The notes: generated by a model not told the origin, from the sequence alone. A stretch of 64,000 nucleotides of DNA from Vulcanimicrobiota bacterium (GCA_963820825.1 CAWGBN010000006.1:288001-352000), one strand, 5' to 3'; positions 4,116-24,754 are shown, counted from the first letter of the stretch. Numbers and translations are program-made.

Positions 4116-6929
4116 TTGGTTCCCGATTCGACAGAAGGGCGTCCTTTGGGAGAGGGACGCCCTTTGCGTATCAGACCAATAGGCGTGCCGCCGCGCGGCG
4201 CGTTTGTCGCTCGGGAAGGTGAGGCTGAAGAGCTCGCCGCGTATCGCCGTGCGGCGGCCCAGGGGCACGGGCATATCGTATTGGTCGGCGGAGAAGCCGG
4301 AATCGGCAAGTCGCGCCTGCTCGATCACTTCGAATCGGTCACGGCTAGCGCGCGGGTGATGCTGGCGACCGCGCGTTGCGCGGAGTTTGGACAGACTCCG
4401 CTCTCGCCGCTGCGAGAGCTCTTAGGGCAACTCGAGCGCCGCGGCAATGCGGCGAGCGATGCGGGTACGCGTGCGCTTCTGGAGCGGCTCGCATTCGAGC
4501 GCAACGCGGAGACGACGGTGGGGTGGCTGCCCGAGGCGTCGCTCTTCAGCTCCATCGATGGTGCGTTTGCTCGTTATGCGATGCGAGGTACGTTGATCCT
4601 CACCATCGAGGACGTTCACTGGGCCGATCGTTCGACGCTGGCCTTCTTAACGTACTTTGCCGATCGGATCGAACGGCGACGGACGCTGGTCGTCACCACG
4701 TACCGAGCCGATGAGGTCGGTTCGCAGCATCCCCACCTTTCGGAATTCTCCGCGCTGCTTTCGAAGCGAGCCGTCGCGACGCTCTCTCTGGCACCGCTGA
4801 GCGAATCCGCGATTCGGGCTCTCGTCGAACAAGCGGCCCCGCATCCGCACGCCGTGTCGCGCATGACGATCGCGGAGATCGTGCGGCGCAGCGAGGGCAA
4901 CCCGTTCTTTGCCGAGGAGTTAATCAAGAGCGTACTCGATGCGGGGCGCGGAGCTCCGATCGCAGAGCTGCCGCTCTCCATTCGCGCTGCCGTCCTGGCA
5001 CGCGCCGCGCGATTAACTCAAGCCGAACGTGACGTCATCTCCCTTGCCGCCGTGCTCGGCGAACGATTCTCGGTCGAGCAGCTGAGCGCGCTCGTTGGAG
5101 GCGATCGAGAGGCCGTTTTGCGTGCGCTCGAGCGGGGTCGTTCGCTGCGTTTGCTTTACGACGAGCCGGCGACGCCCGGCGAAGTCGCGTTCCGCCATGC
5201 GCTAACCCAAGAGGTGCTCTACGGCGAGCTGCTGGCCGAGCGCGTTCGTCCGCTGCACGAAGCGATTGCGATCGAGCTGGAAAAAGCACCCAAGCGCAAC
5301 GTTACGCAACTGGCGCATCACTGGCGGCGAGCCGGGGATCTCCAAAAAGCGTCGGCGTACGACGAAATGGCCGGCGACGGCGCGTTCGTCATCGGCGCAT
5401 TCGCCGATGCGATTCTTTATTACGAGCGCGCCCTTGGCGCGCGAGAGGCCGATGCGCGGCTGGAGCACAAGCTCGGCGTTGCGCTGGGGTCGATCAACGA
5501 GCTGCACGCGGGAATCGAGCGGCTGCGGCGCGCCGGCGAACTCTACTGGCAGAGCGGCGATTTTGACGGTTTTGCCGAGAACGCGTCGTCGCTCGTCGCC
5601 CAGCTGTACAACTCCGGCGACGTGGCTGCCGCCAGTGCGGTCTGCAAGAATGCGATCGAGACGCTGAGTCAAAAACTTCCTGCGGAGAAGCTCGATCTAT
5701 TTCGGACCAGGCTCGCGTTTCAATGCATCGCGGCGCTGGATTACAATGCAGCCTCCGCCTTCTTAAACGATATTCGAGAACCGATTGCCGATCCGAAGAT
5801 CGCGATGCATGCATCGTGGAATCGCTTCAGAGTGGCGGCCATGCGTGGAGAGATCGAGCAATGGCGCTCTCTAACGGCACGAGCGCTCGACGCCGCATGG
5901 CAGGTCGCCGACGGCGGCTCCTGGGCGCGTCACATGCATATCCAAATCGGCATCGATGCACTGGGGCTCGGCGACGTGAAAGCGGCGCGCGACCACTTCC
6001 GCTCTGCGATTCTACCGAAGCGAGAGCGTCAATCGCTCCAAGGGACGATGCTTTCGGCGGCATCGGCGTTCGAGCACACGCTTCGCGGCGACTTCGCCGC
6101 TGCGGCGGAGATCCTGCGGGATGGCGAGCGCCTCGCATTGCAGAGCTATCCGGTTCTCGTACACGTCAAGAGCGCAAACTTCGCCCTTGGAATCTGTTCG
6201 GGGGACGACGCGCGCCTGCGACACGACGATACGGAGTCGTTTCTCCGTTACGGGATCGAGCATGGCATGAACGTCGCGATCGGGATTCTCGGCGGGCCGT
6301 ACGCGTGGGCGTTAGGGATTCAAGGTGATCTCGAACCGGCCGCCGTTTGGATCGGGAGAATCGCCCGCGCTTTGCCCGGGCCGCATCGCTTTCTCTTTGC
6401 CTACCTGGCCGCCGCGCAGTTTGGAGAGCCCGAGGACGTCATCGCCATGCGCCGGCAACTCGGCGAGGCGGCCGAGCACCCTCAGGATCGCGTGAACAAA
6501 GCCGCGCTGGGACTCTTCGATGCGTTTGCCGCCGGGCGCGGCGTTATCGAGGCCGACGCGCGCGCCGCCGCACTCGATGCCGCGACGAGATTCGACGCTA
6601 TTGGTTGGCCGTGGCTCGCCGCGCGCGGCTATGAATTGGGTGGTGAATCCAAACGCTCGTCCGAAACGTATCGCTCGCTGGGGGCTTTGCGCGACCTACG
6701 CCGCGTTGAAACCGCTCGCTCATCGGGGAGCGTCTCTTTGCTCTCGTCGCGAGAGCTCGAAGTCGCCGAACTCGTTGCGGCCGGCCACTCGAACGATGAA
6801 ATCGCACAGTTGTTGCACATCAGTTCTCGTACGGCAGAAAAGCACGTCTCCTCGGCGCTGCGGAAGTTGAACGTGCGATCGCGCGTGCAGCTCGGGCGGC
6901 TGCTCGCGCGATCGCAGGGTGGCGAGTAG
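4116..6929 (+). CDS. Large ATP-binding LuxR-family (LAL/STAND) transcriptional regulator
   Basis: Walker A GEAGIGKS, Walker B IEDVHWAD, GNPFF, FRHAL, helical repeats, C-terminal LuxR HTH (LSSRELEVAELVAAGHSNDEIA..TAEKHVS). Start uncertain (4116-4185). Confidence 0.92.
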   Translation: MVPDSTEGRPLGEGRPLRIRPIGVPPRGAFVAREGEAEELAAYRRAAAQGHGHIVLVGGEAGIGKSRLLDHFESVTASARVMLATARCAEFGQTPLSPLRELLGQLERRGNAASDAGTRALLERLAFERNAETTVGWLPEASLFSSIDGAFARYAMRGTLILTIEDVHWADRSTLAFLTYFADRIERRRTLVVTTYRADEVGSQHPHLSEFSALLSKRAVATLSLAPLSESAIRALVEQAAPHPHAVSRMTIAEIVRRSEGNPFFAEELIKSVLDAGRGAPIAELPLSIRAAVLARAARLTQAERDVISLAAVLGERFSVEQLSALVGGDREAVLRALERGRSLRLLYDEPATPGEVAFRHALTQEVLYGELLAERVRPLHEAIAIELEKAPKRNVTQLAHHWRRAGDLQKASAYDEMAGDGAFVIGAFADAILYYERALGAREADARLEHKLGVALGSINELHAGIERLRRAGELYWQSGDFDGFAENASSLVAQLYNSGDVAAASAVCKNAIETLSQKLPAEKLDLFRTRLAFQCIAALDYNAASAFLNDIREPIADPKIAMHASWNRFRVAAMRGEIEQWRSLTARALDAAWQVADGGSWARHMHIQIGIDALGLGDVKAARDHFRSAILPKRERQSLQGTMLSAASAFEHTLRGDFAAAAEILRDGERLALQSYPVLVHVKSANFALGICSGDDARLRHDDTESFLRYGIEHGMNVAIGILGGPYAWALGIQGDLEPAAVWIGRIARALPGPHRFLFAYLAAAQFGEPEDVIAMRRQLGEAAEHPQDRVNKAALGLFDAFAAGRGVIEADARAAALDAATRFDAIGWPWLAARGYELGGESKRSSETYRSLGALRDLRRVETARSSGSVSLLSSRELEVAELVAAGHSNDEIAQLLHISSRTAEKHVSSALRKLNVRSRVQLGRLLARSQGGE

Positions 6930-6934
6930 TACTG

Positions 6935-8209
6935 CTATTGGGGTACCGCGAATACGGTTCCGTCACCGGTCTGCCCGCTATTGCTCGTGGTCGTTCCGTA
7001 TAACGTGCCGTTGAGGTCCACGAGGGGCGCGTAGGGCGTCTCCGGATAACCGGTCGGATTCGAAGGAGGATCTTGCAAGGTGAAGACCACCTTTTCGCGT
7101 CCCGCCGGCGAGACCGAGTAGACGACTCCCCATCCGAACGTGCTGAACGGCGTGGTGCCGTAGAGCGTCCCGCCGGCGGCGATCAGTGCCGAGATCGGAT
7201 GTTGTCCGTCTTGTTTCGACGCAACGTTGGTGAACCGGTAGAGCACCTTCTCCTTGCCGTCCGGCATCACTTTGAAGATGGTGCCGCAGCCGCAGTTTTG
7301 CAAGCCGCCGTACGAGGTGGTGCCGTACAGCGCGCTGCCCATGACGGCGAGCGAACCCTCCGGACCCGCACCGTCGGGCTGACCGCTGAACGAGTAAACG
7401 ATGCTCTCCGCGCCCGAAAGCGTCACTCTGTAGACCGCGCCGTCGCCGTTCGCACCGCCCTGGCGCGTCGTGCCGTAGAGCGCATTCTTGTACAAGACGA
7501 GTCCGGAGCTGTACGTCGGGCTGCTCGGAGAGCCGGTAAAACTGTAGAGAACGCTCTCCTTCGGTTTCTTGCCGGCAAGGCTGAACTTAAAGATGCAGCC
7601 TTCGCCATCGGCGCCGCCGGCGTAACCCGTACCGTACAGCGCGTTCTTGCTCGCAACGTAAATCATATCGGAATCCGGCTCGAAGCAGTCGTTCGGGTTG
7701 GTTCCGAACGAATACAGGACCTTGTACGAGCCCGACGGCGTAATCGAGAAGATCGTGCCGTGATCTCCGGCCTGGGCTCCCTCCTGATAGGTGGTGCCGT
7801 AGAGCGTTCCGTTGACGTTGGTCAGTGCAGCGTTGGGATAGACGCCGTCGGGCGTGCCGGTAAAGCTGTGCATGACGCTCTCCACGCCGGTGGTGGTTAC
7901 CGAGTAGATCGCGCCGAGGTTATCGCTGCCTCCGGTGTACGTGGTTCCATAGAGCGTGGTGCCGACGTTGACCAGGCCGACTTGCGGACCGCCGGCGTCG
8001 GGCTGACCCTGGAAAAGGTAGATGCCGGGCCCGCTCGGGCCGGACCGTTTATGGGATCGCCCTTGCGGCGAACCGGCACGCTCCGTAGTGGGCAGCATCG
8101 AAACGCCGCCCGGCCCGATCGCCCCGGGCGTGCCGCCGAGACCGCTCTGGGCGCAGCCGGCGATGCCGAGCGCGCAGCTGAGGGCCACTAACTTGAGAGT
8201 CGAAGTCAT
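6935..8209 (-). CDS. Lipoprotein with tandem GloVer-type (Gloeo_Verruco) repeats
   Basis: Lipobox IAGC; repeats of LYGTT.xGG..G.(I/V)(F/Y)..E.VLYSF..PDG..P. Confidence 0.85.
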   Translation of the reverse strand: MTSTLKLVALSCALGIAGCAQSGLGGTPGAIGPGGVSMLPTTERAGSPQGRSHKRSGPSGPGIYLFQGQPDAGGPQVGLVNVGTTLYGTTYTGGSDNLGAIYSVTTTGVESVMHSFTGTPDGVYPNAALTNVNGTLYGTTYQEGAQAGDHGTIFSITPSGSYKVLYSFGTNPNDCFEPDSDMIYVASKNALYGTGYAGGADGEGCIFKFSLAGKKPKESVLYSFTGSPSSPTYSSGLVLYKNALYGTTRQGGANGDGAVYRVTLSGAESIVYSFSGQPDGAGPEGSLAVMGSALYGTTSYGGLQNCGCGTIFKVMPDGKEKVLYRFTNVASKQDGQHPISALIAAGGTLYGTTPFSTFGWGVVYSVSPAGREKVVFTLQDPPSNPTGYPETPYAPLVDLNGTLYGTTTSNSGQTGDGTVFAVPQ

Positions 8210-8315
8210 GATGAAGGCTCCTTTGAGAGAGTGCGTCTCTACAAGGGTGCCTCCGTTTCACCTGAGGGTCGATGCGTAGAACTACTACTCTTTAGAGGTT
8301 CGCCGGGTCTGAGGT

Positions 8316-11066
8316 CTACAAGCGGTAACGCAGCCGAATCAGCGCCGTTTGAGCGAGCGGAAAGGCCTCGGGAACGTAACCGTTCGTTCCATAGTTCCAT
8401 GGAACCGCGGGCGTCCGGCCGTCGTTGGTCGGGATGCCGTTGCCCAGCGTGTAAAGACACTTCTTGCAATACTGCGACCCGTAGGCCCTTTGGTAGTAGG
8501 GATCGCCGCCGGTATATCCGGGAGGGCCGATGAGGTATGGGTTTCCCTGCAGTTGCGTCGGCGTAGCGACCGCGAGGAGATTCACGACGTCGAGCATCGC
8601 CGTCAAGTTCGGCGTAAGGTCGTACTCGACGTGGAGCGAGGTCATCCATTGCGGCGTCGTCCGCAGCGTGTTTGGATCGGCGCCCTCCGGCGTTCCCAGC
8701 GTTGCGACGTACGGGTTGGTCTGGGCGTTGAACGGCCGGTTGGGGTTCTTCAGAAAGTAATAGTTGTAACCCGGATCGACGTAGTTGTCGTTTGGAACTT
8801 GCGTCGGCACGCCCTTGATCGTCTGCCAAATCGTCGTGCCGTTTCCGTACGGGTAGCCGCTCTCGTAGGAGAGCGCCGGAGTAAGCCGCAGGCGACGGCG
8901 ATCGAACCCGATTTCGTACGACGCCGTGCTCGTAAGCGCCGGTATATAGTTTACCGGGAAGAGATGCCCGGCCAGAACCGCCGGCGCGTTCAAGTCGTTG
9001 AACGCGAACTGATAGATGCTCGACGAGAACGTCCGATTGTAGTTGGCGGCGAGCGTGAAGTGTCCCCTGCTTGCCCAGAGTTCGAGTCCGTGTGAACGCA
9101 GCTGGCCCGCGTTGGTCGGCACCCCGATGGCGTTGGGATTCTCGCCGGCGTTGGCCGCACTGCGAAAGTTCGTCGGCAGCACGTCGATGACGTTCTTTTC
9201 AAACTGCGCGAAGTACGAGAGCCGAATCTGCGTGGCGCCGCCGTGCTCGTAGGAGATCTCAAAAAGGTCGGCGGTTTCCGGGGCGAGCGAAAGGCTCGGC
9301 ACCGCACCGCCGGCGTTCGAACCCGAATCGTCGCTGCAATCCTGCGCGGGGGTACAGGTGCGCTGTACTTCCAGGGGCAGCGGCGGCGTTGAGGTGTGGT
9401 CGAAGTTGAAGCGGAATCCGTTGAGCCCGGCAAAGGTATAGGCCAGCGCGAGATGCGGGTCGACCGCGCCGTTGCCGTAGATCACGTTCGTGCTCGTGTG
9501 CGAGTGCTGACCGATGTAGCGCAGCGAGCCCATGATCGAGAAGTGCGGCGTTATGCTCCACGTATCGCTGACGTAAGCCAGGTATTGATTTAGGCGCGGC
9601 GCGGCGGTGATGATCTGCGGTACGGTCGGGACGATCTGATAGATGCTGCTCGTGTTCACGTCGTACTGCGCGCCTGCGCGAACGTCGTGCCTCTCTCCGG
9701 CCTGGTCTTCGAAATCGTAGCCGAAGCCGTCTTCGCGTTGGTATTGCGTCGAGTAGAGCGAGATGACGCCGTCCGGGAAGGAGAGATCGTCCCATTCGGG
9801 CCCGTTTGCGACGGCGCCGGTCTGTGATTGAAAGACTTGAAAGCGCCCCAGCGAGTGCCGCCAGTCGTGAACCCATTGCAGCTTCTCCACGCTGTACGTT
9901 CCGCGTGCGAGCGAGGGCGTATCCACCTGCTGATTCGGATTTGCCGGCTGGCCGGGGAATGCGACCCCCGGCGCACTGAACGTCGACCACTGCAACCCTT
10001 CGTAGGGAGAATCGTACTGCTGATAGGCTGCGGCGCCGGTGAGGAATGACGCCGAAAGATCGTCCCTCGCCGTAGCGGCAAAGTGCAGGTTCCCGGCGAT
10101 CGCGTACTGGGAGCGGGTCTGAAATCCCAAGCCGTACGTGCCCTGCTCGGCCGGGTAGAACGTATGCCCGTCGCCGTATGCAAAATACTCCTGGCCGACG
10201 GTCGACGACAGAGCGTAGCGCCACTTTAGGTCGGGCGTCGCAGCCTGTTCGCTGAACTTCATCTCACCGAGCTGCGCGCCGATTCCGTCTCCGATTTCGA
10301 AAGTGGTCTTCCCGGGATAGCTCCCAACGAGCGGGACCTCGTTGACGACACCGCCGAGCGCATTTTGACTCTCGTCGCTGTACCCGCCCAACGTCACGGT
10401 TGCGGCGCCGACGCCGGTGGTTCCGAGCTGCGCCCCGACGATGTTCCCGCCCGGCTCGGCGATCAATCCTTGTGGAATTGGAACGGAATCGTAGTCGTAC
10501 ACGGTATCCTGCACCTTGCCGCCGCGGACGATGACATTCGCAAACGTATCTTGCTGTATTCCGGGTACGTTCGATATCGCGCCTTGAACCGTGTCGCGCG
10601 AGTAATTGGCGAGTCCGGAGGACGAGGCTTGCGGAGTTCCCGCTTGCGCCTGTTCGCCTGCGACCGAGAAGACGTCGCTCGTGCTCCCGACCGCAAATGC
10701 GTGGCTCTGGGCTTGCACCTTAGCGATCTCTTTCATCGATGGACGCAGCACGAGCGCGACCTCTTCGTGTTCTCCGGGTATTACGACGATGGTAATGCTG
10801 GCCGGCTCGTAGCCCCCAAGCTCGGCTTTGATCGCGTACGTATCGGGCGTGACCCCAAGAACCGTGAACCGTCCTGCGGGGTCGGTCGTCGATCGATAGC
10901 GGCCCGACGGGGCCAGCAGCGTTACCGTGACGCCGGTCAAGGGCCTTCCGGACGTCGTCGTTACGGTGCCGAGGACCGTCCCCGACGATAACTCAGCCGC
11001 TTGCGTAAAAATCGGAACGAGTGCGATTGCGACAGACCCGCAAACCGCGCGCGCGAAAACTCGCAT
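8316..11066 (-). CDS. TonB-dependent receptor with N-terminal carboxypeptidase-regulatory-like domain
   Basis: Signal peptide from ATG 11066 with GGAG RBS; GTV..G..L.GVTV..TD..GRF..PDTY domain; plug-like VRGG and GGVVNEV; beta-strand barrel ending LRYRL. Confidence 0.85.
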   Translation of the reverse strand: MRVFARAVCGSVAIALVPIFTQAAELSSGTVLGTVTTTSGRPLTGVTVTLLAPSGRYRSTTDPAGRFTVLGVTPDTYAIKAELGGYEPASITIVVIPGEHEEVALVLRPSMKEIAKVQAQSHAFAVGSTSDVFSVAGEQAQAGTPQASSSGLANYSRDTVQGAISNVPGIQQDTFANVIVRGGKVQDTVYDYDSVPIPQGLIAEPGGNIVGAQLGTTGVGAATVTLGGYSDESQNALGGVVNEVPLVGSYPGKTTFEIGDGIGAQLGEMKFSEQAATPDLKWRYALSSTVGQEYFAYGDGHTFYPAEQGTYGLGFQTRSQYAIAGNLHFAATARDDLSASFLTGAAAYQQYDSPYEGLQWSTFSAPGVAFPGQPANPNQQVDTPSLARGTYSVEKLQWVHDWRHSLGRFQVFQSQTGAVANGPEWDDLSFPDGVISLYSTQYQREDGFGYDFEDQAGERHDVRAGAQYDVNTSSIYQIVPTVPQIITAAPRLNQYLAYVSDTWSITPHFSIMGSLRYIGQHSHTSTNVIYGNGAVDPHLALAYTFAGLNGFRFNFDHTSTPPLPLEVQRTCTPAQDCSDDSGSNAGGAVPSLSLAPETADLFEISYEHGGATQIRLSYFAQFEKNVIDVLPTNFRSAANAGENPNAIGVPTNAGQLRSHGLELWASRGHFTLAANYNRTFSSSIYQFAFNDLNAPAVLAGHLFPVNYIPALTSTASYEIGFDRRRLRLTPALSYESGYPYGNGTTIWQTIKGVPTQVPNDNYVDPGYNYYFLKNPNRPFNAQTNPYVATLGTPEGADPNTLRTTPQWMTSLHVEYDLTPNLTAMLDVVNLLAVATPTQLQGNPYLIGPPGYTGGDPYYQRAYGSQYCKKCLYTLGNGIPTNDGRTPAVPWNYGTNGYVPEAFPLAQTALIRLRYRL

Positions 11067-11118
11067 CGTGTCTGTGGTCTCCTCTCGCCGGGAGACCGCA
11101 CGCTGCGAGCTCCCGGAT
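11067..11118 (-). promoter_or_regulatory. Putative translational attenuator (two alternative hairpins) over the receptor RBS
   Basis: Minus strand: CCGGGAG (11116-11110) pairs with CTCCCGG (11094-11088); alternatively GGTCTCC (11097-11091) pairs with GGAGACC (11082-11076), which holds the RBS. Confidence 0.6.
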
Positions 11119-11775
11119 TTAGGTTGCGAAGTAGGTGAAGAGAACGAAAGGAGGCGGGGCGCGCAGGCCGGCACAACGGCCGGCGATTCCAAGTGAAACG
11201 CGAGTAACGCGTCGGTCGAGGGCATCGGACGCGGTGGCTCGAGATGCCGACGCGATTTGCAAGAGCCGCCGCAGAAACTCGACGATAAACGCAACGACGA
11301 CGGTGCTTGCGTTCCTGGCGACGCGAATAGCCGCGCGCAGCGCGCAGTACACGATCGTGCCGGTAAGAACGATTGCGACGAGCAAGACCAGCGTATGCGA
11401 GAGGACGACCGAGCGTGGATCGAACGGCGATATGCCGCCAAACCTGGTCTCGTAGCCTTCCATAACGACGATACAAGCCATACTTCCGCAGAACGCGCAA
11501 GCGAGATCGATCCCTCGCGAGAGAACGTTGCCCATCTCAAGCAGAAGCGGGTCGCGCGCAGCTACCCGCGCGGAGGCGAGGAATAGCGTCAACGCGAGGA
11601 TGATGATTGCGCCGAGAAAGAACGCGGGAAGGAGCGCTTCATGCTGGTTGTCGTGAAGGCACTTCCCGAGAAGGCCGGCGTTCTGCGCAGACTCCGTCGC
11701 CGCATCACCGAGTGCTGCGGCCAAAATGGCGACGGCCGCCACGGCGGTGCAGCGGACGATGGCTAAGCGCACCAT
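11119..11775 (-). CDS. Membrane protein with C-terminal RAPP motif; putative ribosome-arrest leader
   Basis: Several TM segments, CLHDNQH and CAFC motifs, GLRAPP ten codons before the stop, 52 nt upstream of the receptor. Confidence 0.65.
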   Translation of the reverse strand: MVRLAIVRCTAVAAVAILAAALGDAATESAQNAGLLGKCLHDNQHEALLPAFFLGAIIILALTLFLASARVAARDPLLLEMGNVLSRGIDLACAFCGSMACIVVMEGYETRFGGISPFDPRSVVLSHTLVLLVAIVLTGTIVYCALRAAIRVARNASTVVVAFIVEFLRRLLQIASASRATASDALDRRVTRVSLGIAGRCAGLRAPPPFVLFTYFAT

Positions 11776-11987
11776 CTGCTAAATGCTCGCAGAGGCATTA
11801 CCCGGCATAAAGGGGCGTTCGCTTCGCCAACGGGCCCTCCCCTCCGCATGGGCGAGATGGCGCATGCCGGCCCGGAAGGAGCCCCCAGCCCTCCAAAGAA
11901 CCCCCCGCTCCTCCCGCTCGTTTTTACGAGCGGACGCTCAGTTTTACCCAAAGCCTCTTAGCTGACAGAATCGGAGAAGCCAATCTG

Positions 11988-13052
11988 ATGCGAAAACAGT
12001 CAATTCTGACGAGCGCGGTGACGGCGGCCGTCGCGGTCGCGCTGCTATCCGCGTGCTCCAGCGGCGTCTCGCAGGGCACCAACGCCGGCCTCCCCTCAAG
12101 CGGCGCAAGCCAGAGCCGGGGAAACTTTGATCCCGCTCGCTCGGGCGTCGCACCGAAGTTCCTGGGAATGATCGGTCACGCGCACGCGGCCAAGCGTGGC
12201 GTCAGCCCGGCCTTTACCAACCACGTCGTCTACATCGACGACTTCGGGACGGGCAACGCCCAGGTGATCAAGTACAACCACTGGACGACCAACGAAGGAA
12301 CGATCAGTGCCGGCATGAACGGCCCCGACGGAAACTGGGTCGACAAGCCGGTCGCGGGCGTTCGTCACCTCTACGTTGCCAACTACGCCAATCCGAACAT
12401 CACCGAGTACGATACGGCCGGGAATCTGGTCTTCACGTACACCGCCGGCATCACCGACTCGGTCGGCGTGACGACGGATAAAAACGGCAACGTCTACGAG
12501 GCCGACTACGCCCTCGGCGCGTCGGGCGTTGGGTTCGTCAACGAGTACGCGCAGCAAAGCAACACCGTCGTGGCGACCTGTTCGCCCGGCGGCAACGTCG
12601 AGGGCGTGGCGGTCGACAAGCACCTCAACGTCTTCGTCGCCTACAACGTCACGTTCGGCACTGCCAACATCGTCGAGTATCACCATCCGTTCTCGGGCTG
12701 CAACGGCACCGTGCTGCCGGTCACGCTGGGCTTCGCCGGCGGCATGGTTCTCGATAAGCGGGGCAATCTCGTCGTCTGCGACCAGATTGCACCGGCGGTC
12801 GACATCATCGCGGCGCCGGCGTACAACGCCATCACCGGAACGCTTGGATCCGGCTGGCTCGATCCGTTCCACGTAACCATCGACATGGCGGGGACGCAGG
12901 CCTACGTGGCCGACGTCGGCGCGGGCACCGTTTCGGTTCTCACCTATCCGGGCGGCTCACCCGTGGCGACGATCAACTCGACGGGAGGTCTCATCCAGGC
13001 GGCGAGTGCGGTCGACGAGCACAATTTGGTTGTAGATAGCCAAGGCCCCTAA
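11988..13052 (+). CDS. Beta-propeller (NHL/SMP-30-like) lipoprotein
   Basis: Lipobox LSAC; repeats GVTTDKNGNVYEAD, GVAVDKHLNVFVA, GMVLDKRGNLVVCD. Confidence 0.8.
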   Translation: MRKQSILTSAVTAAVAVALLSACSSGVSQGTNAGLPSSGASQSRGNFDPARSGVAPKFLGMIGHAHAAKRGVSPAFTNHVVYIDDFGTGNAQVIKYNHWTTNEGTISAGMNGPDGNWVDKPVAGVRHLYVANYANPNITEYDTAGNLVFTYTAGITDSVGVTTDKNGNVYEADYALGASGVGFVNEYAQQSNTVVATCSPGGNVEGVAVDKHLNVFVAYNVTFGTANIVEYHHPFSGCNGTVLPVTLGFAGGMVLDKRGNLVVCDQIAPAVDIIAAPAYNAITGTLGSGWLDPFHVTIDMAGTQAYVADVGAGTVSVLTYPGGSPVATINSTGGLIQAASAVDEHNLVVDSQGP

Positions 13053-13127: not shown

Positions 13128-14181
13128 TTAGGGCAACGTCCGAAATCGCGCGGCCATGCCGAGCTGCAGGTGCACGTTGAGGTGGCAGTGGTAGAGCCAA
13201 ACACCGGGGTTATCGGGAATCATGTCGGCCACCACCATGCCCATTGGGCCGAGCTCGGCCGTATCGGTCCGCATGCCGTTGACGACGACGGTCTCACCGT
13301 GCCAGTGGGGGGCATGAAAGTCGAAGTCACTCATCGTCGTCATCAGGTACCATCGAGTTCGCTCGCCGCGACGAACGTCGATGAGCGGCATGTTCCCGAA
13401 TATATATCCGTTGATCGAATACATTTGGTTATCGTCCACGAAACCTTGACTGCCGGGCTTCACGCCGCTCGGGTTAATCGCGGCATCGGCGACGTTCTCG
13501 TCGAAGAGCCGGCTTTGGCTCTCGTCGATCTCCGCGAACATCGTAAAGATCTCTCGGTCGACGTCGTTTGGGGATCCGTCCGGCTTGGCCGCATCGCGCC
13601 GAGTGACGACGATCGGCCCCACGAGACCGGTGTTTACGTCGCGCAGCTCGTCGGTGTGCGAGTGATACATCCAGAGAATCGAGCTCGGATCCATCGGCCC
13701 GGGCCCGGACCGCTCCGGAACGTCGAAATGGTAGGTGTACGTCGCCCCGGGAGCGACGGTGTCGCCGGGCTTATCGCCGGAACCGCTTCCGTCGCGATAC
13801 GGCGCACCCTCGGAGGCCTTCAGGTAGCGAAGACCGTGCACGTGGAAGCTCAGCGGCAAGTGCGAATTACTTCTTAAACACCACGACCACCGAATCGCCG
13901 ACGACGGCGTGGATCGGCGGTCCCATCGTGCCCATGTAGCGCTGATCCGCGGGGCGCGGCTCGAGCGTTGCGAACGTCGAGTCGGTGTAGCCGTGGTAGA
14001 CCACCTTATGGTAGGCGAAGCCCAGTTGAAACTTGGCCGGTTTCAACGGTGCCCCGGTGAGAACGTTCGTGCCGCTCGGAGCATAGTTCCAGACGACCTC
14101 GTCGGCGGCAATATAATACGTGCGCTCCGCCGCCAGTGCCGGCGTCGTGCAGAGCAAGACGAGAGAGATTATTCGAAGCAT
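13128..14181 (-). CDS. Exported two-domain multicopper oxidase, apparent +1 frameshift near 13870
   Basis: Signal peptide, RTYYIAADEVVWNYAP, MGP.IHAVVGD; then HVHG, WMYHSH, HAPHWHG, YHCHLNVHLQLGM. Removing one base at TTT AAG AAG TAA TTC restores VFKNNSHLP. Confidence 0.85.
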
Positions 14182-14185
14182 GTCC

Positions 14186-14377
14186 TCACACTTTCGGAGC
14201 CTGTTCGTCGGCGAGCCGCGCGGCAATGAAATCGGCAACTTCGCGCGTCTCCGTCACGAAGAGACGCTTGCCTGACGTTACCTCGTGGACCGAGCCGCGC
14301 CAGTGCGCGTCGCCGCAGGATTCCTCGGTCAGCCACATGCGAACGAGGAAGGTGACGTCTCGCCGTTTGGGTTTCAC
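14186..14377 (-). CDS. Small hypothetical protein (63 aa), probably leaderless
   Basis: GTG 14377, TFLVRMW..WRGSVHEV..GKRLFV; ends 4 nt before the oxidase start; a -10 box (TATGCT) ends 7 nt upstream. Confidence 0.65.
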   Translation of the reverse strand: MKPKRRDVTFLVRMWLTEESCGDAHWRGSVHEVTSGKRLFVTETREVADFIAARLADEQAPKV

Positions 14378-23464: not shown

Positions 23465-24754
23465 CTACGGACCGGGACCGAACTCCGCCGTGAACAAATA
23501 GACGCCATCTTCGGGAACGCAGTTCACGAGGCGGGGCGTATACGTCGATTCCTCGGCAGCCTTGAGCACGGCCCGATCCAGGTTGGCGTTGCCACTCGAG
23601 TGATAGACTCGAGCGCCTGCGGCCTTCCCGTTAGCGCCGACTTTGACGGCAACGATCGCCGAAACCTTATGCGTCGGCCACTCCGATTTCGGCAGGTGGG
23701 GCTCCGCGGGGTTGAGTGCTTGCGGCTCGGCGTTTGGATCTTTGCATGATACTGCAACGGTAGCCGCACCGTTCGTAGTAAGGGCATTGGCTCGCACCGG
23801 CACGGGAGCAAGACTCTGCAAGGCGACGGTCATGGCGACAAAGAGCATCGTAATCCCTCCAACGGCAGCGTAGTTGAGCTTGGCATCGGTCGGCGAACGG
23901 TCGGCCATGAGGCGCTCGATCCGGGTGACCAGCGAATGCCGTGAACCGAGCGCGCTCGGCGTCAGAAGCGGCGTGGCCGGCTCGTGGATGCGACGACCGA
24001 GCTGGGCGAGGCAGTTCGCGTAAGCGTGCGGCTCGCCAAGGCGTCCAACGGCCCAATCGTCGCAGGCGGCTTCGCGTTCGGCGGCGAGCCGACGGCCTAC
24101 GAAGTAGATCCACGGATTCCAAAAGAACGCGGCTTCGAGAAGTCGTTCCAATGCATTGGTCGTAACGTCACCGCGGCGAACGTGCGCCAGCTCGTGTTCG
24201 ATCGTGCATTGGAGATCTGCGGGCGAGAGCGCCTCCAGCAACTCGACCGGAATTGAAATTGCCGGCGCGAGTATACCGGCTGCGATCGGCATCGATAGAT
24301 CGCTCGAGGCAAGAACCGGGACGCGGTCGACCTGGGAAACGAGCTGTGCGCCATGCCGGAGCCGCGCGATGCGCGAGTAGCTCACCGATAAGCGTGCAAG
24401 GGCGAGCGCCGTTCCGGCGATCCAGAACGCAGTAATCGACCAAACGATGCTCGGGGCGCCGAGTATCGACGGTAACGCAAGCCGGCTCGCGTTTTGCTCG
24501 AGGGGACCGAAGGGGAGCAGCGAGAATGCGGGGCGACCGAATGGCGCGCCGTGCTCGAGCGCTGCAAAAATCGGCAAATGCCAATGGACGGTCGTCGACA
24601 GCAGCGGTACGGCGGCGAGCGAGAGTGCCGTTACGAACCATGCGGCGTAACGGGTCGCGGCGTTTCGCACGGGGACGAAGTGCAGCGTTAGGACGGTCAC
24701 GCCGGCGATGAGGGCGCCCTGCCAGAGTGCGCTTATGATGAAGGAGAGGATCAT
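23465..24754 (-). CDS. BlaR1/M56 metallopeptidase with C-terminal TonB_C-like domain
   Basis: TM segments, HELAHVRRGD, FFWNP, EAACD; C-terminal V.V..NG..V..SSG..LD.A..AA..Y.P. Confidence 0.9.
   Translation of the reverse strand: MILSFIISALWQGALIAGVTVLTLHFVPVRNAATRYAAWFVTALSLAAVPLLSTTVHWHLPIFAALEHGAPFGRPAFSLLPFGPLEQNASRLALPSILGAPSIVWSITAFWIAGTALALARLSVSYSRIARLRHGAQLVSQVDRVPVLASSDLSMPIAAGILAPAISIPVELLEALSPADLQCTIEHELAHVRRGDVTTNALERLLEAAFFWNPWIYFVGRRLAAEREAACDDWAVGRLGEPHAYANCLAQLGRRIHEPATPLLTPSALGSRHSLVTRIERLMADRSPTDAKLNYAAVGGITMLFVAMTVALQSLAPVPVRANALTTNGAATVAVSCKDPNAEPQALNPAEPHLPKSEWPTHKVSAIVAVKVGANGKAAGARVYHSSGNANLDRAVLKAAEESTYTPRLVNCVPEDGVYLFTAEFGPGP

Follow-up and report, generated by a model that had tools for sequence, protein, structure and literature searches.

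A conserved Vulcanimicrobiota cassette with a C-proximal RAPP motif and RNA pairings that may gate translation of a TonB-receptor-like gene

The stretch of DNA analyzed here (the window) comprises 64,000 nucleotides (nt) from a Vulcanimicrobiota bacterium (GCA_963820825.1, CAWGBN010000006.1:288001-352000); positions are counted from its first letter. Its minus strand carries a two-gene cassette. The upstream gene encodes a predicted membrane protein of 218 amino acids (aa) with the sequence Arg-Ala-Pro-Pro (RAPP) close to its C terminus, and the downstream gene, which begins after a spacer of 52 nt (11118-11067), encodes a putative TonB-receptor-like outer-membrane protein. The RNA between the RAPP codons and the receptor start codon contains several complementary segments, two of which face the Shine-Dalgarno (SD) sequence of the receptor gene and are referred to below as anti-SDs. 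The features of the cassette are as follows.

11775-11119, minus strand: upstream gene, 218-aa open reading frame (ORF) of an unnamed family, stop codon TAA (11121-11119) included.
11163-11152, minus strand: RAPP codons CGC GCC CCG CCT, residues 205 to 208, the presumed arrest site.
11153-11145, minus strand: first anti-SD (segment 0), CTCCTTTCG, overlapping the Pro codon presumed to occupy the A site and the next two codons; pairs with CGAGAGGAG at 11087-11079.
11122-11151, minus strand: pyrimidine-rich ten-codon tail PFVLFTYFAT between RAPP and the stop codon.
11116-11110, minus strand: segment A, CCGGGAG, an SD look-alike that starts 2 nt after the stop codon and forms the 5′ arm of the A:B hairpin.
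11108-11104 with 11100-11096, minus strand: inner stem TCGCA/TGCGG of this hairpin, loop GCG at 11103-11101.
11100-11088, minus strand: segment B, the second anti-SD, in which CTCCCGG (11094-11088) is the partner of A and GGTCTCC (11097-11091) that of C.
11087-11076, minus strand: segment C, the SD region of the receptor gene, in which CGAGAGGAG (11087-11079) is the partner of segment 0 and GGAGACC (11082-11076) that of B.
8316-11066, minus strand: downstream gene for a 916-aa outer-membrane protein, ATG at 11066, with a signal peptide, a CarboxypepD_reg domain (residues 30 to 107), and a receptor-like barrel.

An earlier sequence-only reading of this DNA had located the 218-aa ORF, RAPP, the 52-nt spacer, and the motifs CLHDNQH (residues 39 to 45) and CAFC (residues 92 to 95) correctly. 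The C-terminal residues of the protein are ...GLRAPPPFVLFTYFAT. GTG at 11772 is an alternative start of the ORF; family members mostly begin MRxA.... Searches of Pfam (E ≤ 0.01) and NCBIfam gave no match for the protein. A word-indexed search retrieved 70 near relatives, nearly all of them 216 to 217 aa long and carrying either no name or, wherever the source gives one, “hypothetical protein.” An exhaustive search of cluster representatives added 48 further, more distant relatives; a cluster look-up for 10 of the distant ones returned neither names nor taxa.

RAPP is the best-conserved feature of this family. Of 116 family proteins, 102 have it no more than 40 residues from the C terminus, as do 93 of the 100 with a length of 190 aa or more; among the 14 proteins that have no such RAPP, three carry RSPP and one REPP, and nine are shorter than 200 aa. 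In a second subfamily, which includes two paralogues from the same genome, R(G/A)PP occupies the same position in 20 of 21 loci (9 RGPP and 11 RAPP). The distance between the ME.YE sequence and RAPP is 98 to 99 residues in 65 of 67 near relatives and 91 to 100 residues in 34 of 35 representatives, and the tail after RAPP measures 10 residues in 52 and 9 residues in 15 of the 102 motif-bearing proteins. RAPP counts in six-frame ORFs of the genome are meaningless, since spurious GC-rich frames dominate them; a C-terminal R[AG]PP combined with membrane helices was found among these ORFs only in the gene described here and its RGPP paralogue.

According to the portion of the work of Fujiwara et al. 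available to us (PMC12992588), RAPP and RGPP are the two cores that cause robust translation arrest resistant to elongation factor P; they are depleted from proteomes, are enriched near the C termini of small secreted or membrane proteins, and the genes downstream of such proteins include TonB-dependent receptor genes. The present family has a conserved C-proximal R-A/G-P-P in a predicted membrane protein of fewer than 300 aa (216 to 218 aa in most relatives), with a receptor gene 14 to 57 nt downstream on the same strand. By analogy with the toeprint reported for CruR, a RAPP-bearing protein of Bordetella pertussis (PMC12992588), the arrested ribosome is presumed to have the first Pro codon of the motif in its P site and the second in its A site.

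An alignment of 32 near relatives shows that the loop MEGYETRFGGxSPFDPRSVVLSH is nearly invariant and that D24, D42, P50, H127, and the ending G-x-R-A-P-P are kept as well; the amino acids that follow RAPP are poorly conserved. In 31 diverse relatives (22 to 48% identity), the sole invariant residues are E106, E109, R205, P207, and P208, and at least 90% of the sequences share each of E28, D42, P50, and A206. The alignment columns of the Cys residue of CLHD, of the cysteines of CAFC, and of His41 are variable. The family as a whole therefore has no CxxC-type metal site, and of the His/Cys motifs pointed out earlier only D42 and, mostly, H45 are kept.

In an AlphaFold2 (AF2) model of the upstream protein computed from the diverse alignment (predicted local distance difference test, pLDDT, 85; predicted template modeling score, pTM, 0.72), helices span residues 2 to 32, 48 to 68, 76 to 81, 84 to 111, and 120 to 186, the last being one long helix. 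Four of the modeled helices are long and hydrophobic, in agreement with the membrane helices noticed earlier from the sequence. The last 30 residues, RAPP included, are modeled with low confidence. Judged from the positive charges, the protein probably has an N-in, C-in topology with four spans, with E28, D42, E106, and E109 placed on the periplasmic side. A Foldseek comparison of the fold with the PDB returned nothing at E < 1, and a search of the ESM Atlas returned unnamed clusters only. The top four rows of VIA-align were permeases of the MacB/FtsX type (BceB, YbbP, FtsX, and LolE) with Z scores of 8.3 to 6.7; for helical bundles, the tool rates Z scores below ~13 as unreliable.

Scored by script, 29 of 36 foreign loci have the receptor gene after the RAPP gene, and five more of these loci show the same spacer and an ATGCGA start when inspected by eye, which supports the proposed association of the upstream ORF with a TonB-receptor-like gene. 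At two loci (L005 and L006), other DNA lies downstream of the RAPP gene. The outer neighbors vary between loci and are often on the opposite strand, and the conserved unit is therefore a two-gene cassette, which is genuine and conserved. Receptor identity between loci is 50 to 81%, compared to 32 to 57% for the upstream protein; within the same clade, the values are 75 to 81% and 45 to 57%, respectively. Receptor conservation this high is unusual for a nutrient receptor and may reflect a core function. The genome contains 14 matches to the receptor profile, only three of which are preceded by a member of the upstream family.

The CarboxypepD_reg domain of the 916-aa protein corresponds to PF13620 (E = 3e-14, residues 30 to 107). 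Even at E ≤ 10, the protein matches neither the TonB receptor barrel (PF00593) nor the Plug domain, which we take to be PF07715. Ten of its 21 homologues (59 to 81% identity) match PF00593, with a best E value of 8.8e-18, and Plug is absent from the families matched by the 21. By eye only, a plug-like stretch and a TonB-box-like sequence, KEIAKVQA, can be made out, and the NCBI name for close relatives is TonB-dependent receptor. In comparisons with solved structures by sequence and profile, only the CarboxypepD_reg part was matched, and no solved receptor; the AF2 model shows a long run of beta hairpins and, with a pLDDT of 44, is too poor to judge. Since matches of the protein itself to the barrel and Plug are absent and its relatives match PF00593 in part, we call the downstream gene only TonB-receptor-like. 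The genome encodes Omp85 and a Ton system, with four TonB_C matches and two ExbD genes, as well as Rho. One of the TonB_C matches is located inside the window (23480-23659, minus strand, in a 434-aa open frame); the other three, the two ExbD genes, and the Rho gene are clustered on contig C9 at 78 to 84 kb.

Among the pairings around the receptor start, a long helix between the codons that follow RAPP and the receptor SD has the best comparative support. In the 100-nt stretch from RAPP to the receptor ATG, the helix formed by segment 0 is both the minimum free energy (MFE) structure and the centroid; it encloses the A:B hairpin and joins the post-RAPP codons to the SD and to the nucleotides between it and the start codon. 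A second stretch of the tail, CTCTTC (11142-11137), is also able to pair with the SD. In most loci, the pairing takes place between CGT TCG ATT .. TCCTC (encoding R-S-I...) and GAGGAGATCGAACG. Across 22 loci, 87.0% of the cells in the 14 pairs are paired, compared to 34 to 56% in slid registers. Changes on both sides of a pair were found in 10 cells versus 3.7 in shuffles, and the covariation score is 0.202 versus 0.147; neither value was reached in any of 500 shuffles, a control that overstates the covariation because the sequences are related. Third positions of the codons in the long helix are 76% identical versus 43% upstream of RAPP, and the GATCGAACG stretch that leads from the SD to the ATG is conserved, segment C being 79% identical. 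The long helix would explain both the kept third positions and the kept SD-to-ATG stretch. When the codons after RAPP are included in the fold, the SD of the free RNA is predicted to be paired (unpaired 0.06 of the time). A switch made of A:B and B:C alone would leave free mRNA open, a prediction that does not survive the inclusion of these codons.

The A, B, and C pairings put forward earlier are present in the spacer, the MFE structure of which (−19.6 kcal/mol by RNAfold) is the A:B hairpin. In 22 distinct spacers, 86.7% of cells are paired for A:B (12 aligned pairs) and 86.2% for B:C (9 pairs), and these values drop to 35 to 73% when the partner is slid by 1 to 3 columns. Pairwise identity of the non-coding spacer is 70%, which compares with the 43% at third codon positions just upstream of RAPP; within the spacer, conservation is highest in segment B (85%). 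When the spacer is folded alone, A:B is favored by a mean of ~4.7 kcal/mol and the SD is unpaired 0.59 of the time. Occlusion of the stop codon and 10 nt lowers this to 0.04, and the value is near zero in 21 of the 22 spacers, the SD being drawn into B:C. The two-state behavior of A:B and B:C is thus real in silico, occlusion of A having the effect that was proposed earlier for a ribosome that has reached the stop codon. In the RNAalifold consensus, B:C alone is kept. We regard the A:B/B:C pair as an accessory device beside the long helix.

Anti-SDs near the arrest site are also found in relatives with a different layout. One clade, whose tail is 7 residues long (RTLPGLA), has neither A nor B; its anti-SD, CGCTCC(C/T), falls within codons +2 to +4 past RAPP. 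Pairing of this element to the SD GGGAGCG is seen in 56 of 56 cells, where all changes are wobbles, and in seven of eight MFE folds. Further cases are provided by two paralogues in the same genome, outside the window.

C6:524845-525516, plus strand: RGPP paralogue (L046/L076), 224 aa, ending ...AKRGPPQTRFA.
C6:585149-585769, plus strand: third paralogue, carrying KRAPP.

The RGPP paralogue is followed after 42 nt by another CarboxypepD_reg receptor-like gene, the SD of which, AGGAG, is paired in the MFE fold with CCTCCT, the Pro codons of the paralogue. In the KRAPP paralogue, CCTCCC faces GAGGG. The frame of this gene has no stop codon for 393 nt, counted from the start of the KRAPP codons, and crosses the SD and the start codon of a receptor-like gene that comes next in a different frame; an unarrested ribosome would run over the ribosome-binding site (RBS) of the receptor gene. 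A run-on frame after RGPP is common to four loci of other genomes (L077-L080). An anti-SD of the receptor SD lies within the footprint of a ribosome at RAPP, as in masking systems of the SecM/CutF type. Three clade-specific layouts with an anti-SD beside the arrest site constitute comparative evidence that stalling opens receptor translation.

To express the effect of ribosome position in terms of energy, we calculated the cost of opening the receptor RBS (−15 to +6), with the ribosome modeled by occlusion. Averaged over 22 sequences, the cost is 14.6 kcal/mol for free mRNA, 10.0 kcal/mol with a ribosome at RAPP, and 15.3 kcal/mol with a ribosome at the stop codon. The stalled cost is below that of free mRNA in 21 of 22 sequences, below that of the stop state in 21 of 22, and the lowest of the three in 21 of 22. 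When the P site was moved along 19 of the sequences, the cost was ~15 to 16 kcal/mol upstream of the motif, 11 to 12 kcal/mol from codon −1 to codon +10, and 16 kcal/mol with the stop codon in the A site. Pairings and energies thus agree with the sign suggested by the sequence-only reading, in which a stall would turn the receptor gene on.

Overall, we consider the cassette to be most likely a stall-operated switch, in which translation of the receptor gene is gated by where the ribosome stands along the upstream gene, and we hold this view with slightly more than even confidence. From the observed motifs, synteny, and complementarities and their conservation, we infer an arrest, a sign of regulation, an order of three states, and a signal, as follows. 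The upstream protein would insert into the inner membrane as a bundle of four helices that has both termini inside, with E28, D42, E106, and E109 on the periplasmic side. About 57 residues past the last membrane helix, the ribosome would meet R-A-P-P and arrest with the two Pro codons in its P and A sites. In free mRNA, the receptor gene would be off, its SD shut by the long helix through the first anti-SD or by the local B:C hairpin through the second. A ribosome arrested at RAPP would turn it on: the first anti-SD would be covered and, since A is left free, the A:B hairpin would form and keep B away, so that the SD opens for the 30S subunit. Release of the arrest would turn it off again, because the ribosome that reaches the stop codon covers A and lets B close the SD, blocking termination-reinitiation; once this ribosome has gone, the long helix would re-close the SD. 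Release would presumably be brought about by force on the nascent chain, set by what the membrane or periplasmic part senses. With the stall as the on state and release as the off state, the sign would be the same as for CruR, and an uptake receptor would come under negative feedback, provided that arrest is released by the sensed signal.

We also consider a more specific form of this model, which we put forward tentatively and regard as possible but less likely than not to hold in full. The cassette would be a three-state decoder of ribosome position, in which, owing to the two anti-SDs and an SD decoy, only a ribosome arrested at RAPP, and not an absent, elongating, or terminating one, opens the SD. 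The sensor that releases the arrest would be the four-helix protein with an all-carboxylate site (E28, D42, E106, and E109), and the periplasmic signal would be a hard cation or the receptor/Ton system. If this were true, each paralogous receptor would have a private protein-based sensor, with no transcription factor.

Several results weigh against a stall-operated switch. At the locus in the window, the same occlusion gives costs of 12.6 kcal/mol for free mRNA, 12.3 at RAPP, and 9.5 at the stop codon, so that the benefit of stalling is absent or reversed there, and in the P-site scan the effect is small (12.3 at RAPP versus 14 to 15.7 elsewhere). An opening cost of ~10 kcal/mol is left in the stalled state generally, which makes the effect modest, and when the remaining tail is included, the SD of the stalled state is predicted to be unpaired just 0.22 of the time. 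The folds are not exceptionally stable: z is −1.58 for the spacer and −1.74 for the RAPP-to-ATG stretch, with 13 of 200 shuffles as good in each case. Hence, of the energy comparison suggested earlier, the preference for A:B within the spacer holds and an advantage over shuffles does not; since shuffles fold about as well, the case for function rests on comparison with relatives and not on energy. A:B and B:C, conserved as expected, do not covary above shuffles, their observed scores being reached by 31 of 500 and 242 of 500 shuffles, respectively, which follows from the high conservation of the spacers. The RNAalifold consensus contains neither the long helix nor A:B. A duplex rank test was mixed: in the 29 loci scored (L009, L019, L046, and L066 were left out), from 0 to 212 of ~590 gene windows paired as well as the post-RAPP window. 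Two loci have a 14-nt spacer that lacks hairpins, and two have no receptor gene. Last, a well-folded membrane protein of 217 aa may have a job of its own.

The loci with short spacers are L009 (4587-4606) and L019 (3444-3463). In both, 14 nt (CCAGGGAGTC..AC) separate the stop codon from the receptor ATG, there are no hairpins, and RAPP with a 9-residue tail is retained; the spacer looks like the product of a deletion between the direct repeats A and C. In L005 (5001-6072) and L006, the family member ends RAPPQVA or RAPPQAA, that is, with a 3-residue tail, and no receptor gene follows. What lies downstream instead are GC-rich hairpins and a 115-aa ORF; a 625-aa fusion of a multicopper oxidase with a membrane domain is encoded near the family member on the opposite strand.

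The system that most resembles the cassette is CruR (Bp2923, DUF2946), which precedes the receptor gene bfrG in B. pertussis. In the accounts available to us (PMC9426467 and PMC12992588), it has the same C-proximal RAPP in a membrane-targeted protein and is followed by a receptor of the TonB-dependent type; in both systems, the sensing part keeps a conserved distance from RAPP, and the stall is proposed to be the on state. However, the two are not related in sequence: the protein studied here has no Pfam match, so the relation to DUF2946 and CruR suggested earlier is not borne out. CruR uses an invariant CxxC located ~45 residues before RAPP, whereas the present family has no conserved CxxC and has Glu and Asp as invariant residues instead. 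CruR is also shorter (~145 aa) and poorly structured, compared to ~217 aa, four helices, and a confidently predicted fold here, and has 3 residues after RAPP compared to 10. Finally, as described in the available portion of PMC9426467, cruR is followed by a 162-nt spacer with Rho-dependent termination, compared to 43 to 52 nt with predicted SD-masking helices in the present family.

In leader attenuators of the ermC type, a ribosome paused in the leader covers an RNA segment, redirects later pairings, and frees the next SD. Here, in contrast, the pause would be caused by RAPP arrest in a 217-aa membrane protein and not by an antibiotic in a short leader, and the order of segments and the role of the stop-codon position differ. 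In CutF-cutO of Rhodobacter capsulatus, SecM-secA, MifM-yidC2, and VemP-secDF, an anti-SD stem-loop shields the next SD and is opened by a held ribosome (PMC9973294, as far as available to us). Unlike these systems, the locus described here has two anti-SDs and an SD look-alike that traps the second of them, and the RBS is predicted to be re-closed at the stop codon. Further, the putative sensor is a polytopic membrane protein, whereas theirs is a secreted peptide, and the downstream gene encodes a receptor-like protein, whereas theirs encode a Sec or YidC component or an oxidase.

The part of PMC12992588 available to us also reports arrest in vitro and in vivo for four-transmembrane RAPP/RGPP proteins of Streptomyces lividans (SLIV_18480, SLIV_27375, SLIV_33595, as well as SLIV_33605). 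Compared by description, these proteins resemble the present family in their four predicted membrane helices, C-proximal R(A/G)PP, a conserved stretch after the fourth helix, and same-strand downstream genes. They come from another phylum, their downstream genes are metal-related or encode thioredoxin or extracytoplasmic function sigma factors, and no RNA switch is described for them in the available part of PMC12992588. Since these proteins arrest, a polytopic carrier of RAPP has a precedent, and the earlier description of the cassette as a larger, polytopic variant stands as to the predicted four-helix membrane protein but is less new than it seemed. RAPP arrest peptides have been proposed to control many genes beyond protein export; in the portion of this literature available to us, only CruR has been studied for a TonB-dependent receptor.

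The protein family is new; the type of switch, the RAPP motif, and the polytopic carrier are already known. Searches of the literature on Eremiobacter and TonB and on arrest peptides found no description of the family. The searched part of the supplements of PMC12992588 contains no mention of Eremiobacter or Vulcanimicrob, and the family may stand in the remainder. The cassette therefore represents an independent, unannotated family in which the motif of CruR precedes a gene of the same kind; its phylum is represented here by metagenome-assembled genomes only, and its putative sensor differs in being a folded polytopic membrane protein with invariant acidic residues and no Cys motif. Confirmation would shed light on how a signal from the periplasm or membrane passes to the peptidyl-transferase center and would aid the annotation of receptor regulation in soil Eremiobacterota.

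Of the other explanations, the one that fares best, although we consider it unlikely, involves no signal-dependent switch. The upstream protein would be an inner-membrane partner of the receptor, RAPP would be a constitutive pause that serves insertion or sets the ratio of the two proteins, and the hairpins would tune coupling or mRNA stability. The size and confident predicted fold of the protein (pLDDT 85) and the near-invariance of its MEGYETRFGGxSPFDPRSVVLSH loop are as would be expected for a working protein and not a disposable leader, and the two loci that lack the hairpins still have RAPP. However, RAPP and RGPP alternate while their surroundings vary, which fits selection acting on arrest and not on a structural motif; the protein sequence of the tail is poorly conserved; and the SD is masked by codons next to the arrest site, so that initiation at the receptor gene would depend on the dwell time of the ribosome there.

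Slightly more doubtful is transcription attenuation as in cruR-bfrG, where the main effect of the ribosome arrested at RAPP would be to bar Rho, letting RNA polymerase continue into the receptor gene, and the RNA pairings would be secondary. This mechanism has been demonstrated for the only RAPP leader of a TonB-dependent transporter studied in the literature available to us (PMC9426467); the genome has a Rho gene, and an untranslated receptor message would be open to Rho anyway. Yet the spacer of 43 to 52 nt consists mostly of hairpins, compared to the 162 nt of cruR-bfrG, and no C-rich unstructured rut-like tract came up, although no dedicated look for one was made. The anti-SD kept within reach of the arrested ribosome in three architectures points to control of initiation.

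Least probable of the three is an exact two-state switch in which only A:B and B:C matter, with untranslated or stalled mRNA on, because A:B is the more stable fold, and a ribosome at the stop codon off: the conservation of both pairings, the response of the isolated spacer to occlusion, and the presence of B:C in the RNAalifold consensus speak for it, but neither pairing covaries above shuffles, the SD of free RNA is mostly paired once the post-RAPP codons are included, the long helix is better supported by comparison, and this explanation accounts neither for the kept third positions of RSI and the kept GATCGAACG stretch nor for clades that lack A and B and yet have an anti-SD beside RAPP.

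The 24 loci of the protein family from species-representative genomes are recorded under Vulcanimicrobiota, Eremiobacteraeota, or Candidatus Cybelea in 22 cases and under other names in two. A profile search matched the family in 145 of 301 genomes of the phylum, counts that include one unpublished genome (G275). Matches occur in 128 of 206 genomes of one taxonomic family (f1) and in 14 of 22 genomes of a second; the other sampled families had none. In the genus to which the present genome belongs, 54 of 58 genomes match. Many genomes carry two to five copies.

The start of the upstream gene is not preceded by an SD. A TGCTAGAAT-like motif, which resembles an extended −10 element, ends 6 to 7 nt before the start codon, and the upstream gene may be translated from a leaderless mRNA.

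11776-11800: extended −10 look-alike at the locus in the window; 12 to 18 nt upstream of the start in L002, L008, L014, and L027.

The version of this motif in the window, TGCGAGCAT, is weaker than TGCTAGAAT. A scan of 6800-12100 found no sigma-70-like promoter, a result that is silent on whether the receptor gene has its own promoter, and terminator-like sites in the same interval are no commoner than in shuffles. An alignment of the upstream regions of 24 loci revealed no shared operator, and Rfam gave no match within 10900-12100.

Two neighborhoods of the cassette deserve description. Beginning 106 nt after the receptor gene, on the same strand, is a lipoprotein-like ORF of 424 aa (6935-8209, minus strand) that contains many repeats with the ending LYGTT; other loci have a different gene at this place or one on the opposite strand, and this ORF is therefore outside the conserved cassette. 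On the other side, two adjacent minus-strand ORFs, 13128-13859 and 13867-14238, lie 7 nt apart and together resemble one multicopper oxidase. The 243-aa ORF contains Cu-oxidase_2 and Cu-oxidase_3, and the 123-aa ORF, which matches no Pfam family, has the appearance of a signal peptide-like N terminus; the pair may represent a split or frameshifted gene or an assembly error.

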